From a virus (Duplodnaviria; Heunggongvirae; Uroviricota; Caudoviricetes), in the IMG/VR virus record IMGVR_UViG_2872164251_000007, positions 1 through 29,317 of that record: 29,317 nucleotides of DNA; one strand, given 5' to 3'. Position numbers and translations under genes: made by a program. Shown in pieces: positions 5,811 to 14,704 of this stretch; within the stretch, counting starts at the first letter, position 1; the number at the start of each line of letters is the position of its first letter. Below the pieces are notes generated by a model, which was not told the DNA's origin, did not search any database, and was given only the letters and a program-made list of their open reading frames with translations.

Positions 5811-6058
5811 GCCTACGACAAATCGAAGACAACCAGCTAACCTATTGTTTCTTAAAGACAGGTGAATCCAGTTGGTTGTAGTGATAGTCACACATTTAGA
5901 GATAGAAGGTCAAGACTTGAAGCACGTAATATTCCCTCTAAAGGAATAGAACTCACGGTCTGACTACCCGGCCCTTTTGGTCTGGCTGAAGTGGCACACT
6001 GAATTTGGCCACCTGAACAGAGGTGATATGCTCACCTCAGAACAACACAGGTGCTCCA

Positions 6059-6361
6059 ATGAAAAAAAGAAATTTTAGCGCAGAGTTTAAACGCGAATCC
6101 GCTCAACTGGTTGTTGACCAGAAATACACGGTGGCAGATGCCGCCAAAGCTATGGATGTTGGCCTTTCCACAATGACAAGATGGGTCAAACAACTGCGTG
6201 ATGAGCGTCAGGGCAAAACACCAAAAGCCTCCCCCATTACCCCGGAACAAATTGAAATCCGTGAGCTCAGGAAAAAGCTACAACGCATTGAAATGGAGAA
6301 TGAAATATTAAAAAAGGCTACCGCGCTCTTGATGTCAGACTCCCTGAACAGTTCTCGATAA
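6059..6361 (+). CDS. IS911 orfA (HTH/leucine-zipper)
   Basis: [21 protein letters not shown]... ORF; start chosen at the internal Met matching the IS911 OrfA N-terminus. Confidence 0.85.
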
Positions 6362-6387
6362 TCGGGAAACTCAGAGCGCATTATCCT

Positions 6388-7227
6388 GTGGTCACACTCT
6401 GCCATGTGTTCGGGGTTCATCGCAGCAGCTACAGATACTGGAAAAACCGTCCTGAAAAACCAGACGGCAGACGGGCTGTATTACGCAGTCAGGTACTTGA
6501 GCTACATGGCATCAGCCACGGTTCGGCCGGAGCAAGAAGCATCGCCACAATGGCAACCCGGAGAGGCTACCAGATGGGACGCTGGCTTGCTGGCAGGCTC
6601 ATGAAAGAGCTGGGGCTGGTCAGCTGTCAGCAGCCGACTCACCGGTATAAACGTGGTGGTCATGAACATGTTGCTATCCCTAACTACCTTGAAAGGCAGT
6701 TCGCCGTGACCGAGCCAAATCAGGTGTGGTGCGGTGATGTGACCTATATCTGGACGGGTAAGCGCTGGGCGTACCTCGCCGTTGTTCTCGACCTGTTCGC
6801 AAGAAAACCAGTGGGCTGGGCCATGTCGTTCTCGCCGGACAGCAGGCTCACCATGAAAGCGCTGGAAATGGCATGGGAAACCCGTGGTAAGCCCGGCGGG
6901 GTGATGTTCCACAGCGATCAGGGCAGTCATTATACGAGCAGGCAGTTCCGGCAGTTATTGTGGCGATACCAGATCAGACAGAGTATGAGCCGGCGCGGAA
7001 ACTGCTGGGATAACAGCCCAATGGAACGCTTCTTCAGGAGTCTGAAGAACGAATGGATGCCGGTGGTGGGTTACGTAAGCTTCAGCGAGGCAGCTCACGC
7101 CATAACGGACTATATCGTTGGATATTACAGCGCACTAAGACCGCACGAATATAACGGTGGGTTACCCCCAAACGAATCGGAAAATCGATACTGGAAAAAC
7201 TCTAACTCGGTGGCCAGTTTTTGTTGA
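6388..7227 (+). CDS. IS911 orfB (DDE transposase domain)
   Basis: 279-aa ORF with IS3-family DDE domain, downstream of orfA in the -1 frame. Confidence 0.85.
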
Positions 7228-7309
7228 CCACTTCAGGCTCAGGTCAGGCTATGGGGGCTTTTGGCTCGCTCTTTATATTAGATGAGGTCTCACATTTTTC
7301 AGTCAAAAC

Positions 7310-7390
7310 TCATCGTCTAATAGCCCATAGCCAGACCACCAGTCCCAGCTTTAGCAGGAAGACCACGAGATAGACTTTGTGTAGGTCCAT
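7310..7390 (-). CDS. Small hydrophobic peptide (26 aa), candidate membrane peptide
   Basis: ATG preceded by AGGAGG at 5-nt spacing; product MDLHKVYLVVFLLKLGLVVWLWAIRR; last ORF of the minus-strand gene array. Below the ORF-track size cutoff. Confidence 0.25.
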   Translation of the reverse strand: MDLHKVYLVVFLLKLGLVVWLWAIRR

Positions 7391-7485
7391 TTGGCCCTCC
7401 TACTTTCTGTATTCACGAACTAGATTACTAGTACAAAATAAAGGCCAGACATCCAGTTCGGAAGTCTGACCAATAGTCGTTATTG

Positions 7486-12287: not shown

Positions 12288-12292
12288 GTCCA

Positions 12293-12315
12293 TTCCTCTA
12301 TAGTGAGGTGTATTA
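12293..12315 (-). promoter_or_regulatory. T7-group phage RNA polymerase promoter-like sequence P3 (closest to T7 consensus)
   Basis: Minus strand TAATACACCTCACTATAGAGGAA versus T7 consensus TAATACGACTCACTATAGGGAGA (18/23 identical, -9 to +1 identical); begins 5 nt after the stop of the 202-aa gene. Confidence 0.6.
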
Positions 12316-12319
12316 TCGC

Positions 12320-12928
12320 TCAAGCACTGGGCCACATTGACACACCACTGACGCCAAAAGCTAACATCAGACTTCTGCGCTCGGCTGCTGGAAGGTAACC
12401 TTCAGAAGGCCTGTAACCATTATCAGAAATCTCATGGTCAATATGCTTTGCCATTTCAATGTATTTTGCAAGGCGCTCAACAGTTAATCCCCGAAATTGT
12501 TCAGAGTTTACCGCCAGGACACTTTTTGCAATATCGTCTTGGTTATCCAAATGATCCGCCGAGAAATTAAAGCTCGAAGTATACGAATCGCCGTGAGCAA
12601 TAGCGTCTCTTACCTCAAGACACTCTTTGATAATTTGGTAAGGTTTTGTCCCCATATAATTGTTTATACCGCACAATTTTAACGTATTCTTGTGCATTGT
12701 CTTTCTGCACTCTTTCTGCGTCTTATCGTAGCCGGGGTCAACCTGTTTTCTATAGAAGATGAACATTGCCTCAATAGCAAAAGCAGTAAATATTATACCT
12801 GTGCGGCAATGATGCTCACGTTGCCAATCTTCCGAAGCCATTCCAGCCAGCCCCAAACAAGTTTCAGCAGTATTCATACATTCATATGAAGGCTTATTTT
12901 CTTTGCTAACTAAAAATTCTTTGACCAT
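12320..12928 (-). CDS. Hypothetical protein, 202 aa, with HEPN-like Rx4H motif
   Basis: AT-rich ORF between the integrase and the promoter cluster; contains EVRDAIAHGDSY (R-x4-H); family assignment is inference only. Confidence 0.5.
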   Translation of the reverse strand: MVKEFLVSKENKPSYECMNTAETCLGLAGMASEDWQREHHCRTGIIFTAFAIEAMFIFYRKQVDPGYDKTQKECRKTMHKNTLKLCGINNYMGTKPYQIIKECLEVRDAIAHGDSYTSSFNFSADHLDNQDDIAKSVLAVNSEQFRGLTVERLAKYIEMAKHIDHEISDNGYRPSEGYLPAAERRSLMLAFGVSGVSMWPSA

Positions 12929-12959
12929 TACGTCCTCACATTCCGCTATCCCTATGCGA

Positions 12960-14570
12960 TTACTTTCCGTCTATTTTTTTTACTGACAATGACTCCGCTA
13001 ATTTTTCTTTCAGCGTTTCCACCTCGACCTCTTTCGCGTAACGGTCGTAAGTTATAGACCCTGAGCTATGACCCATAATCGCCTGAGCATACGCTAACTC
13101 GACCCCATGTTGTTTTAACTGGGTCGCAACTGTATGTCTAAACGAGTGAAAAGCTAAGCCGCTACGGTCAGCGAGGACTTTGGGCAGCAACGTTCGGTTA
13201 AACCACTTGCTAACCTGCTCACCGTAGCCGTTCTTCATTAGCTTGAGGCCATTGAACACCATAGCATTATCACCCTCAGTCTTTCTACGGTCTTCCACGA
13301 GTGACATAAAGTCAGCCAATACAAAACCATAAGCACCATCTACCAACGGGACACAGCGGTCACTGTGGGCGTTCTTGATACTCTTACCCGGCAGGCTGCT
13401 ATCGTCTTCGTTGATATGGATAAAAACGGTCCCAGCCTCAGTGGTCCTGACATCTTTAACCTGAAGTTGGGCCACCTCGTTAAGTCTCGCACCTGTAATC
13501 GCAGCCAGAGCGGTGACGTAATAATGGTATGGCTTACCTGAGGTCTTCTGCGAGTACGCTTTAGCTGCGACCAGTAGTTGCCCTACCTGCTCAGGACTGA
13601 ACGCATCACGAGCGTCGGAGGCTTTACGCTGAGGGACTTTCAGCTCAAGACCTTCGGTCAGGTTCTTAGCTATCAAGTCGTTGCGTACCGCCCACTTAAA
13701 CACAGCAGCCATCTTGATAAGATATTTATTGTTAATGGTAACGACGTCCAGACAGTCAGTCTTAGACTCCCGGTTCAGCAAGTCAGACAGCGGCATAGAC
13801 TTAAAGCGTTGCTTGCGGTTCTTCGGTAGCTGCTGGAGGACTTCACGAACTCTGAGCATATCTGCACGGGTCGCCTTGCCGACATCCTGAATATCCAGAT
13901 AGTCGAATATCTCGATTAGCGTAGAGTGTGACGCTCGGTTTTCGCTTAGGGTCGCTGGCTTCCAGTTCTGGGCGTTCTCCTGCTCGTACTGCTCAATGAG
14001 AGACGCGAGGGTCAGTGCTTTAGGTTCAGGGACTTCAGGTTCCGCCAATACAGATAGGGAGACGGACGGTCTTAGACTGCCAGTCTCAGGCTCAAGGTAA
14101 GACAATAGGCCAGAGCTATCGCCATTGAGTCTATCCTGACAGGCCTTAAGCACACCGATAACGTCATTAATATAGCGATGCTGGTCTACAGTCAGACGCT
14201 CGGTCGCTACAGCTTCCCGAAGTTTGGACTTAATGTCATCGTACTGGTCAACGTAAAGCTGGTAGGACTCCGGGTCGTTCAGGTCATCACGGCTGACACT
14301 AAGTTCCCACTCGACAATGGTCTTCAGGTGCTCCCGTAGCTCCTCATAAGAGGCGTTAGGGTTGTCTGCATGGATTGCTTTAAGTGCTGACTTGATGTGC
14401 CGTGAGTGAGCCATAGCGGTACGTCTATCCTTGGTCCGTAAAGATACTGACGCTAGTTTATAACGGTTGTGAGAAGGAAGCGAAGCGGTCAGGCGACTAG
14501 TGGTCTTCATCCTAAGACGGATGTAAAAGACACCATTACGCTGATAAAGGTAGGTTCTTGACTTGAGCAT
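12960..14570 (-). CDS. int: Tyrosine site-specific integrase (large, 536 aa, with N-terminal extension)
   Basis: C-terminal catalytic signature: R in AITGARLNEV, HSFRHT (HxxR), GHSSGSITYDRY (catalytic Tyr); located 134 bp from the tRNA-Gly 3' end. Confidence 0.85.
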   Translation of the reverse strand: MLKSRTYLYQRNGVFYIRLRMKTTSRLTASLPSHNRYKLASVSLRTKDRRTAMAHSRHIKSALKAIHADNPNASYEELREHLKTIVEWELSVSRDDLNDPESYQLYVDQYDDIKSKLREAVATERLTVDQHRYINDVIGVLKACQDRLNGDSSGLLSYLEPETGSLRPSVSLSVLAEPEVPEPKALTLASLIEQYEQENAQNWKPATLSENRASHSTLIEIFDYLDIQDVGKATRADMLRVREVLQQLPKNRKQRFKSMPLSDLLNRESKTDCLDVVTINNKYLIKMAAVFKWAVRNDLIAKNLTEGLELKVPQRKASDARDAFSPEQVGQLLVAAKAYSQKTSGKPYHYYVTALAAITGARLNEVAQLQVKDVRTTEAGTVFIHINEDDSSLPGKSIKNAHSDRCVPLVDGAYGFVLADFMSLVEDRRKTEGDNAMVFNGLKLMKNGYGEQVSKWFNRTLLPKVLADRSGLAFHSFRHTVATQLKQHGVELAYAQAIMGHSSGSITYDRYAKEVEVETLKEKLAESLSVKKIDGK

Positions 14571-14704
14571 GTACTGAGACCTTAGGTCTGCTCACTACTT
14601 CAACAAAGTTAGTCACAGTGTTGGTTACAGTGAGTAAAACTATCGGAAGGCGTTAAGCCGTATCCCTTAGGATTCAGTAAGTTAGTAGACTTTAAGAAGT
14701 GTCA

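Follow-up and report, generated by a model that had tools for sequence, protein, structure and literature searches.

A small integrative island in a prophage-borne tRNA-Gly gene carries T7-type promoters and a predicted HK97-fold capsid gene

The subject of this analysis is a small integrative island in the tailed-virus record IMGVR_UViG_2872164251_000007 (Caudoviricetes), of which positions 1 to 29,317 are here called the window. The window represents the late region of a lambdoid prophage and is read in the minus-strand direction. The island is located between the prophage tRNA cluster and the lysis genes and is co-oriented with the late operon, a position occupied by the stx genes in Shiga toxin (Stx) phages. 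The island, its insertion site, its open reading frames (ORFs) and its insertion sequences (IS) are as follows:

14705–15015, minus strand: cluster of four tRNA genes, Met-Arg-Thr-Gly(UCC); the 3′ end of tRNA-Gly is position 14705
14705–14779, minus strand: hybrid tRNA-Gly(UCC), consisting of a phage-derived 5′ part and an island-supplied glyU-type 3′ end (14705–14721)
5811–14704, minus strand: integrative island, 8894 bp as found and 6329 bp without IS911 and IS629, bounded by means of the empty site, a copy at chromosomal glyU and a block alignment to the related island L001
12960–14570, minus strand: tyrosine integrase of 536 amino acids (aa) (PF00589, E=1.6e-18; phrog_1, E=2.7e-45), ending 134 bp from the tRNA
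12320–12928, minus strand: gene for a 202-aa HEPN-like protein (R107-D-x-I-A-H112) in a variable cargo slot
11395–11495, minus strand: conserved predicted leader hairpin (RNAalifold) in which the Shine-Dalgarno sequence AAGGAG of the operon's first gene is paired
9348–11389, minus strand: Rha/Ant-type DNA-binding gene, split by IS629 into exons 11389–11360 and 10049–9348
10050–11359, plus strand: IS629, 1310 bp, with the 3-bp target duplication GTT (10047–10049 and 11360–11362); junctions placed against L001
9170–9346, minus strand: 58-aa core ORF (IDPRTPEGRxTLRYRG...), kept in all three attachment-site types
8559–9050, minus strand: gene for a 163-aa protein, adjoining the capsid-fold gene upstream in every variant seen
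7486–8475, minus strand: gene for a 329-aa protein with a predicted HK97 fold (major-capsid or encapsulin-like)
7435–7472, minus strand: terminator-like hairpin and U-run right after the capsid-fold gene (-19.7 kcal/mol, z = -3.56), followed by UUUAUUUUG
7310–7390, minus strand: gene for a 26-aa hydrophobic peptide, MDLHKVYLVVFLLKLGLVVWLWAIRR, with an AGGAGG Shine-Dalgarno sequence, placed after the operon terminator
5987–7235, plus strand: IS911-type IS3-family insertion in the distal non-coding arm, with the duplication GGC (5984–5986 and 7236–7238); junctions placed against L001
5794–5810, strand not assigned: distal attachment (att) core TGGAGCGGGCAGCGGGA, the original 3′ end of the prophage tRNA-Gly, moved 8.9 kb by the insertion

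The original prediction, made from the sequence without database searches, had described most of this arrangement. Its co-oriented minus-strand array is confirmed, with the integrase and the 202-aa gene, then some 0.9 kb of DNA poor in ORFs, and then the Rha gene, the ORFs of 58, 163 and 329 aa and a hydrophobic one of 26 aa, as are the placing of a tyrosine integrase 134 bp from tRNA-Gly and the view that IS629 and IS911 are clean later insertions. The distance from the 17-mer at 5794–5810 to the holin, given there as about 290 bp, measures 293 bp. The naming of a Rha-family gene was right as to family, the intact homologue in L001 matching PF09669 (Phage_pRha, E=3.5e-18) and phrog_10324 (E=1.6e-69), but the gene is not intact in the window; it is disrupted, because IS629 lies inside codon ~10. 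With IS629 thus between the promoters and the capsid genes and IS911 in the distal arm, the copy in the window is damaged and may be inert. Other island copies and variants are labelled L001, L002, L008, L010–L013, L016–L018, L020 and L021, and empty sites L003 and L004; L002 is the EPSSH018 copy, L008 is of the ynfE type and L017 represents the third attachment-site type. The exact integrase and 329-aa protein sequences of the window are on record from Shigella flexneri, and no complete E. coli RefSeq genome holds at least 80% of the region.

The history of the insertion can be followed at its two junctions. An empty site was rebuilt in silico by joining the left flank, with its 17-mer, to the remainder of the tRNA. 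The rebuilt junction matches E. coli FDAARGOS_944 in a single piece (99.2% over 1000 bp), in which the tRNA cluster is directly followed by the holin. It is covered to at least 80% in nine more genomes and also matches isolated phages, e.g. vB_EcoS-689R5, PhiR47_1 and phi467. The comparison of related genomes for an unoccupied site, proposed in the original prediction, thus gave a positive result. The prediction had also taken the 17-mer at 5794–5810 for a copy of the tRNA end and for the far boundary of the island. The boundary stands, and homology to chromosomal islands begins exactly at this core. The core is not a copy of the present tRNA end (14705–14721, TGGAGCGGGCGAAGGGA), to which it is identical at 14 of 17 positions, but agrees at 17 of 17 with the tRNA-Gly end of the unoccupied prophages L003 and L004, which have the same phage flank. 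It is therefore the displaced original tRNA end, while the present end is that of chromosomal glyU. As evidence of insertion, such a displaced-end match is stronger than a plain repeat. In the junction alignment the tRNA has the glyU-type core and the far end of the island the phage-type core, which places the crossover at the T-loop edge of the 17-bp core, the island having supplied the glyU-type end and the phage end having been displaced. The junctions thus show that the element was inserted by its tyrosine integrase into the 3′ end of tRNA-Gly(UCC), and that a look-alike tRNA-Gly of a lambdoid prophage was used here in place of the usual site, chromosomal glyU. Because a look-alike tRNA with a 14/17 core served as the site, the island's glyU-type end is now part of the phage tRNA.

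This exchange is not without consequence for the tRNA. In the hybrid tRNA-Gly, C50-U64 and A7-C66 are mismatched and G49-U65 is a wobble pair, so that the predicted T stem retains 3 of 5 bp and the acceptor stem 6 of 7 bp. The hybrid folds with -23.4 kcal/mol, as against -28.4 kcal/mol for the rebuilt original, and the hybrid has the lowest Rfam tRNA score (48.9 bits) of the four tRNAs in the cluster. On these predictions the phage's hybrid tRNA-Gly is probably impaired. In EPSSH018 the same junction pattern is found with a different island variant in a different prophage; ARAGORN identifies its tRNA cluster as Met-Lys-Thr-Gly, where the annotation of the record has Ile in first place. Phage-borne tRNA-Gly has consequently been used as a site probably at least twice.

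Copies of the island are common outside prophages. The same 6.4-kb array is found at chromosomal glyU in many E. coli, with 96.6% identity, between actS and the ETT2 type III secretion genes and with a perfect 17-bp direct repeat at its bounds. Relatives with a different integrase interrupt ynfE, and a third attachment-site type is flanked by the 16-bp direct repeat TAGTTCAGATTGAACT. Islands of the family are roughly 4.5–6.5 kb in size. The module formed by the 163-aa and capsid-fold genes occurs in 310 of 5426 complete E. coli genomes (about 6%), on chromosomes in every case. Distant relatives of the 329-aa protein (25–45% identity) are found in the same kind of mini-island in other bacteria; for example, the Vibrio cholerae island L020, located between yceD and maf, has the order integrase, 96 aa, 135 aa, capsid-fold protein of 314 aa, 92 aa and 163 aa. 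In the phage collection, matches to the array are confined to IS629 and the tRNAs; conservation of the array inside lambdoid or Stx-type phages, which by the original prediction's own terms would have refuted it, was thus not found in that collection. Since the island is mobile and common outside phages and only IS and tRNAs match within the phage collection, the earlier reading of a secondary mobile element that used a phage tRNA as its attachment site is supported by the empty sites and the non-phage copies alike.

Two observations bear on how these islands recombine and move. L001 and L011 are mosaic: they are 90.6% identical from the integrase to the third promoter (P3, see below), have unrelated first-gene modules, and show 78% identity again over the 163-aa and capsid genes. 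The region concerned comprises about positions 3043–4290 of L001 in gene orientation. Because the break falls exactly at P3, the promoters may act as recombination boundaries. L017 is a whole island of the third type as a contig of its own (Logan contig SRR29836470_72561, 6661 bp), and the contig ends exactly 30 nt past each 16-bp repeat, a length that would presumably be k-1 for an assembler run with k=31. Such ends fit an assembly graph in which occupied and empty or circular junctions co-exist, which is suggestive only. Two other candidates for an island circle were rejected: L005 is a chromosomal junction, and the L018 contig begins inside the tRNA.

Directly after the 202-aa gene, on the minus strand, there are three T7-family promoters that all face the downstream operon:

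12315–12293 (-17 to +6), minus strand: P1, a second T7/T3-like promoter type, TAATACACCTCACTATAGAGGAA, with predicted start 12298
12287–12265 (-17 to +6), minus strand: P2, Kayfunavirus type, CCTTAACTATCACTATAGGGGAG, with predicted start 12270
11726–11704 (-17 to +6), minus strand: P3, Kayfunavirus type, ACTAAACTATCACTATAGGGACC, with predicted start 11709

The original prediction had noticed T7-like promoters in the ORF-poor DNA. These are real, and more was to be read from them, as they are exact, host-matched copies of the promoters of T7-like phages. P2 and P3 agree with the eleven annotated promoters of the Kayfunavirus EcoDS1 (consensus CTAAACTATCACTATAGG) at every conserved position, and with the consensus from -17 to +3; P2 is identical to EcoDS1 phi13 from -17 to +3, and P3 is identical to phi10 and phi6.5 at 21–22 of 23 positions. 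The promoter of the EPSSH018 island is identical to the EcoDS1 capsid-gene promoter phi10 at all 23 positions. A 38-nt query around P2 matches 221 phage records; the matches listed are all phages of ~38–41 kb, many of them Kayfunavirus, with 1–10 places per record (7–10 in most), and in EcoDS1 and CR44b the match falls under an annotated promoter. CACTATAGGG occurs twice in the window where 0.02 occurrences are expected (~100 times chance), and none of 100 shuffles reaches two. A 30-mer from the promoters is found in 259 of the 5426 complete E. coli genomes, only on chromosomes and at 1–2 places each; none of 30 listed places is under an annotated feature, and in all five genomes cross-checked the 30-mer is within or a few kb from the island capsid module. 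P1 differs between island copies, being CCCTCACTATAGGG, CACCTCACTATAGAGG or CCCACACTATAGGGG. Phage matches were obtained with the P1 of L011 and that of L001, and marginally with that of L012, in 21 records, 19 of which are 39–41 kb long, and the P1 segment of the window itself has no phage match among those listed. A scan of the whole island for the sigma-70 consensus gave one weak site, on the opposite strand. We infer that the island promoters are read by the RNA polymerase of T7-like phages.

The relatives in other genera keep the layout while the promoters follow the host. In the Citrobacter freundii island L013, TTTAAGGAAGGTACACTATAGGGAGAGACAC is identical at 31 of 31 positions to the annotated promoter immediately upstream of gene 10 in Citrobacter phage CR8, which holds 11 such promoters. 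In the V. cholerae island, TATTTAACCCTGACTATAGGGAGA is identical at 24 of 24 positions to annotated promoters of the V. cholerae T7-like phages VP3 and VP4, and 92% identical to ICP3. These two islands accordingly carry exact copies of promoters from phages that infect their own host genus. Promoter-like sequences of this broad type are seen in the Erwinia/Pantoea island (six copies of the AATTAACNCCCACTAATGGGAGAC type, 85–88% identical to promoters of phiYeO3-12-type phages) and in the Serratia island L016 (AAACCCCGACTATAGAGAGA and AAACCCTGACTTTAGGTAGA, T7-type promoter-like by eye), the promoter segment of the latter having no phage match among the 45 records listed. Consensus-quality promoters that track the phages of the host genus within a fixed gene layout cannot, in our view, be explained by chance or decay.

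An AT-rich stretch with short repeats is seen after the first promoter or promoters in the Vibrio (L020, 6900–7060) and Erwinia/Pantoea (L021, 4720–4810) copies and, less clearly, in the window (~11860–11915). The primary origin of T7 consists of the tandem promoters phi1.1A/B followed by an AT-rich region. The layout of the islands resembles this origin, most clearly in the Vibrio and Erwinia copies, and an origin function would be pure inference from that likeness. (G/T)GGTC, similar to the T7 primase site, occurs 7 times in the non-coding region where 1.8 occurrences are expected, a count that carries little weight because the whole island is rich in this motif. The 0.9-kb non-coding stretch contains no RNA family in the Rfam scan; a permissive Rfam scan of 5400–15100 gave only an ALIL frameshift pseudoknot in IS629 (10385–10501), the tRNAs of the cluster and, on the strand opposite tRNAs, two Plastid-ycf2 matches below threshold.

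Among the products of the operon downstream of the promoters is the 329-aa protein, for which the original prediction had proposed profile and structure searches and had missed a capsid fold. The protein and 33 relatives have no Pfam, PHROG or NCBIfam match, except for an added Ig-like domain in one relative. AlphaFold with an alignment in which all sequences were at least 69% identical gave a predicted local distance difference test score (pLDDT) of 45.7; a usable model was obtained after distant relatives were added. This model has the HK97 fold, with an N-arm, an E-loop hairpin, a spine helix, and P and A domains. The UniRef name “Phage major capsid protein,” given to a member of the same 90% cluster, agrees with the fold. 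The model thus identifies the 329-aa protein as an HK97-fold capsid protein, for which the formation of a shell is a prediction.

The profile searches proposed for the 163-aa protein returned no significant family; its charged C-terminal half matches coiled-coil families below threshold only. Its homologues form 122 clusters across the Enterobacterales. Neither Pfam nor NCBIfam scans bear out the public labels for it, i.e. “toprim domain-containing protein” (L011 10051–10542, RefSeq), “Chromosome segregation ATPase” and “ATPase,” which look like artefacts of a coiled coil. From its position, the 163-aa protein is a candidate scaffold or cargo. The 58-aa core ORF has no family match in these searches. 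Across the island family the first operon gene encodes a Rha or KilA-N DNA-binding protein. For the leader hairpin ahead of this gene, RNAalifold predicts 31 pairs over 6 variants, 10 with compensatory changes; the hairpin is reminiscent of the RNase III processing sites in T7 mRNAs. The 26-aa peptide is conserved in islands of the tRNA-Gly type (L001, L002, L010 and L011) with substitutions that preserve hydrophobicity, and is missing from ynfE-type islands. A small membrane toxin resembling those of type I systems is one possible identity, and a peptide that times lysis is another.

The cargo slot between the integrase and the promoter array varies among copies. It contains the HEPN-like gene in the window, an unrelated DUF4145 gene in other copies such as L001, an HNH endonuclease gene in L010 and, in L012, a 166-aa gene with its own promoter pair; in L008 it contains three tandem repeats of ~75 bp, then a 122-aa ORF between two promoters. 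The L008 repeats (5080–5300) lie upstream of the first phage-type promoter, each with a TTGACA and a TATATA box, and could be host-polymerase promoters or binding sites. The RDxIAH motif of the 202-aa protein is invariant in 15 homologues, 5 of which match HEPN_RiboL-PSP weakly (E=0.0055–0.02, under the curated cut-off); a PDB search gave no match. GC content is ~40% in the composition window covering this gene (12501–13000). The slot recalls the hotspots for defence genes in known satellites. Pfam, PHROG, PADLOC and NCBIfam scans and the ORF inventory gave no replication, portal, terminase or tail gene in any copy.

Together, the promoters and the capsid fold point to virulent T7-like phages as the partner of the island, rather than to the resident lambdoid prophage. 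T7 shuts down host transcription, and the RNA polymerase of T7-like phages reads promoters of 23 bp. We consider it likely, with a probability of roughly 0.65, that the element belongs to a widespread family of ~4.5–6.5-kb islands activated when a T7-like virulent phage infects the cell and supplies its RNA polymerase. The islands are best seen as a new form of phage satellite or phage-inducible island, defined by promoter mimicry of these phages together with a private capsid-fold gene. Under this reading a T7-like phage would infect and turn host transcription off, and its polymerase would fire the island promoters at late-gene strength. The ribosome-binding site would become accessible once the leader hairpin is processed or opened, and the proteins of 163 and 329 aa could then either build small capsid-like shells, with the portal, terminase and tail of the helper carrying the island as a satellite, or corrupt the capsid assembly of the helper. 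Since the island has no replication gene, the promoters and adjoining AT-rich stretch may serve as a T7-type origin copied by the helper replisome.

Of the roles open to an island switched on in this way, that of a satellite would be the most likely single one. In its full form this proposal is tentative and on balance somewhat doubtful: no satellites of T7-like (Autographiviridae) virulent phages would have been recognised before these islands, which would sense the helper directly by mimicking its late capsid-gene promoter, use an origin for the helper replisome, make small capsids from a capsid protein and scaffold of their own, borrow only portal, terminase and tail, and, across Enterobacterales and V. 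cholerae, swap promoters to follow the local phages.

Several points speak against activation and parasitism of this kind. Use of the promoters is deduced from sequence identity. Homology of the island to EcoDS1 or CR8 is limited to the promoters, and comparisons with these two phages revealed no T7-like packaging signal or concatemer-junction sequence and no ATCTGTT pause motif. (A 14-nt match near the point where the right terminal repeat of EcoDS1 starts is, at E=0.79, taken as chance.) The predicted structure of the 329-aa protein is closest to encapsulins and HK97, not to T7 gp10, and neither it nor the 163-aa protein has sequence similarity to EcoDS1 gp10A or gp9; co-assembly with helper parts is less obvious for these reasons. 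No island-only circular contig was found, the three matches in the viral-contig collection all being on longer contigs of 18–73 kb. T7-like phages degrade host DNA, which leaves the survival of an excised 6-kb circle unexplained. Finally, the integrase is upstream of the promoters, so the induction of excision is unexplained unless a small ORF or the Rha protein supplies it.

The alternative that survives best is a phage-triggered defence island that lacks helper-mediated transfer. The promoters would be a tripwire for a decoy capsid protein, its partner and a Rha-type protein, the products would poison capsid assembly or kill the cell, and the island would spread by its integrase and by other routes, such as riding in prophages. 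The promoter and fold evidence fits this account equally well. The missing packaging signal, portal, terminase and replication genes would be expected under it, the slot beside the integrase holds candidate defence-type genes (HEPN-like, DUF4145, HNH), and nesting in a prophage is a plausible transfer route. However, the PADLOC models match none of the island's six proteins (no match better than E=0.006), the compact conserved layout is one common to known satellites, and at least three attachment-site specificities and a spread over Enterobacterales and Vibrio argue for efficient horizontal transfer. A scaffold-like partner gene and a full-length capsid fold also seem more than a decoy needs. 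We therefore regard a defence island as unlikely, while still a serious competitor to a satellite.

A decayed temperate T7-like phage, of which an integrase, a few promoters and a capsid gene are left, would equally combine T7-family promoters and a capsid-fold gene with an integrase beside a tRNA. Decay is hard to reconcile with a minimal order that is kept with intact ORFs in 310 of 5426 E. coli genomes, several other genera and three attachment sites, or with promoters that are at consensus and change with the phages of the host. No copy showed traces of RNA polymerase, DNA polymerase, portal or tail genes, the capsid protein lacks sequence similarity to gp10 of the T7 group and matches no PHROG family, and no longer relatives were seen linking the islands to complete integrase-bearing T7-like genomes. 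Such a remnant is very improbable.

An encapsulin-like nanocompartment operon on an ordinary island, with the 163-aa protein as cargo, the 329-aa protein as shell and fortuitous or vestigial promoter matches, would accommodate the structural likeness noted above. Against it stand the exact host-matched promoter arrays in several genera (23/23, 31/31 and 24/24), the sigma-70 scan with its single weak site on the opposite strand, and the lack of a Pfam encapsulin match or an enzyme-like cargo, and it is if anything still less probable than a remnant. The idea of a conserved internal “moron” block of a lambdoid prophage lineage, suggested by the co-oriented, stx-like position in the late operon, is already refuted by the empty sites in related prophages and isolated phages, by the island at non-phage chromosomal sites and by the phage-collection matches to IS and tRNAs only, and has next to no chance of being correct.

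Activation by T7-like phages would set the island apart from the satellites described so far. The original prediction did not recognise the gene set as P4-like or as that of a phage-inducible chromosomal island (PICI), a PICI-like element (PLE) or a phage-inducible chromosomal minimalist island (PICMI), and this holds, the marker genes of all four being absent in the Pfam, PHROG, PADLOC and NCBIfam scans. P4-like satellites share with the island a tRNA-adjacent integrase, a variable (defence) cargo hotspot beside it and, presumably, the manipulation of capsid assembly. The helper of P4 is the temperate phage P2, and no family match to the alpha primase-helicase, Sid, Psu, delta or epsilon was found in the island scans. 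Classical PICI genes (master repressor, primase/replication module, and terS or ppi/rpp) were likewise undetected in these scans. Capsid-forming PICIs (cfPICIs), e.g. EcCI2, are ~10–15 kb in size, also encode a portal, a protease, head-tail adaptors and a small terminase, have temperate helpers and are induced via helper proteins. In contrast, the island is 6.3 kb, has only a capsid-fold gene and one partner, and carries promoters for the polymerase of a virulent phage; the portal, protease, head-tail connectors and small terminase of the cfPICI set are missing from its ORF inventory and from the matches to the four hidden Markov model libraries.

The PLE of V. cholerae are chromosomal islands that answer a strictly lytic phage and combine parasitism with defence, as the present island may do. 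They are ~18 kb in size, have their own replication initiator and many dedicated effectors, target the myovirus ICP1 and are induced by a helper protein. PLE have no gene homology to the island and their induction proceeds via a helper protein, not helper promoters. PICMI carry alpA and fis-type regulators and no capsid gene. Unlike these, the island has no detected AlpA or Fis domain and does have a capsid-fold gene; in common with PICMI and the marine Vibrionaceae elements, it is ~6 kb in size, has an integrase at one end and lacks replication and tail genes. Small phage-parasitising elements have been described from virus particles (PMC9618062), and the main text of that paper contains no “promoter,” “capsid protein” or “T7-like” outside its reference list. 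Ccm of SaPIbov5, by which helper capsids are resized and which is itself a capsid-protein homologue, is not similar in sequence to the 329-aa protein and belongs to another host and helper type. The 23-bp consensus of the island promoters is identical or near-identical to the late (class III, phi10-type) promoters of the T7 group in EcoDS1, CR8 and VP3/VP4, with the difference that those of the island are located in a bacterial chromosome or prophage rather than in a T7-like genome. Encapsulins and the Pyrococcus furiosus virus-like particle differ in that the island has no encapsulin Pfam match and no recognisable cargo enzyme and is a mobile element with phage promoters. No description of such an element was found in the literature searched, a search that left subscription journals mostly outside, and we know of no satellite or phage-inducible island described for T7-like phages.

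Few virulent phages have been studied as well as those of the T7-like group, from which candidates for phage therapy are commonly drawn. If activation by their polymerase is confirmed, it would represent a new induction principle, promoter mimicry instead of protein sensing, and the phage to which an island responds could be predicted from 23 bases. Should Kayfunavirus, CR8-like or VP3/VP4/ICP3-like phages be blocked or parasitised by the islands, the host range of therapeutic phages in E. coli, Shigella, Citrobacter, Serratia and V. cholerae would be affected. No curated sequence model covers the capsid-fold family, which would contribute a capsid-forming system of very small size and bear on the relation between capsids and encapsulins. 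The nested case in the window shows how phage-borne tRNA genes can serve as secondary landing sites, so that one mobile element rides in another, at the cost of a damaged phage tRNA and a lengthened late operon.

The surroundings of the island within the window include the following features:

5322–5501: P21-type holin (PF04971, E=1e-24)
1206–3845: transposase genes of an IS66-family element
15777–16388: another IS3-type transposase

The prophage has a Q-type antiterminator (DUF1133/antitermQ) and an ORF6N gene. The island shares the orientation of the late operon, and late transcripts of the prophage, once antiterminated, should therefore pass through it on the way to the lysis genes. The holin and lysozyme genes would be reached by Q-antiterminated late transcription and likewise by run-on transcription that a phage polymerase starts at the promoters of the island. 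The lysozyme gene is truncated after ~68 codons, just downstream of an adjoining IS3-family transposase ORF (4248–5066), and for this reason the host prophage, which is IS-riddled and truncated, is very likely defective. That transposase ORF and a near-identical one at 28020–28838, both of 272 aa, presumably belong to copies of IS600.

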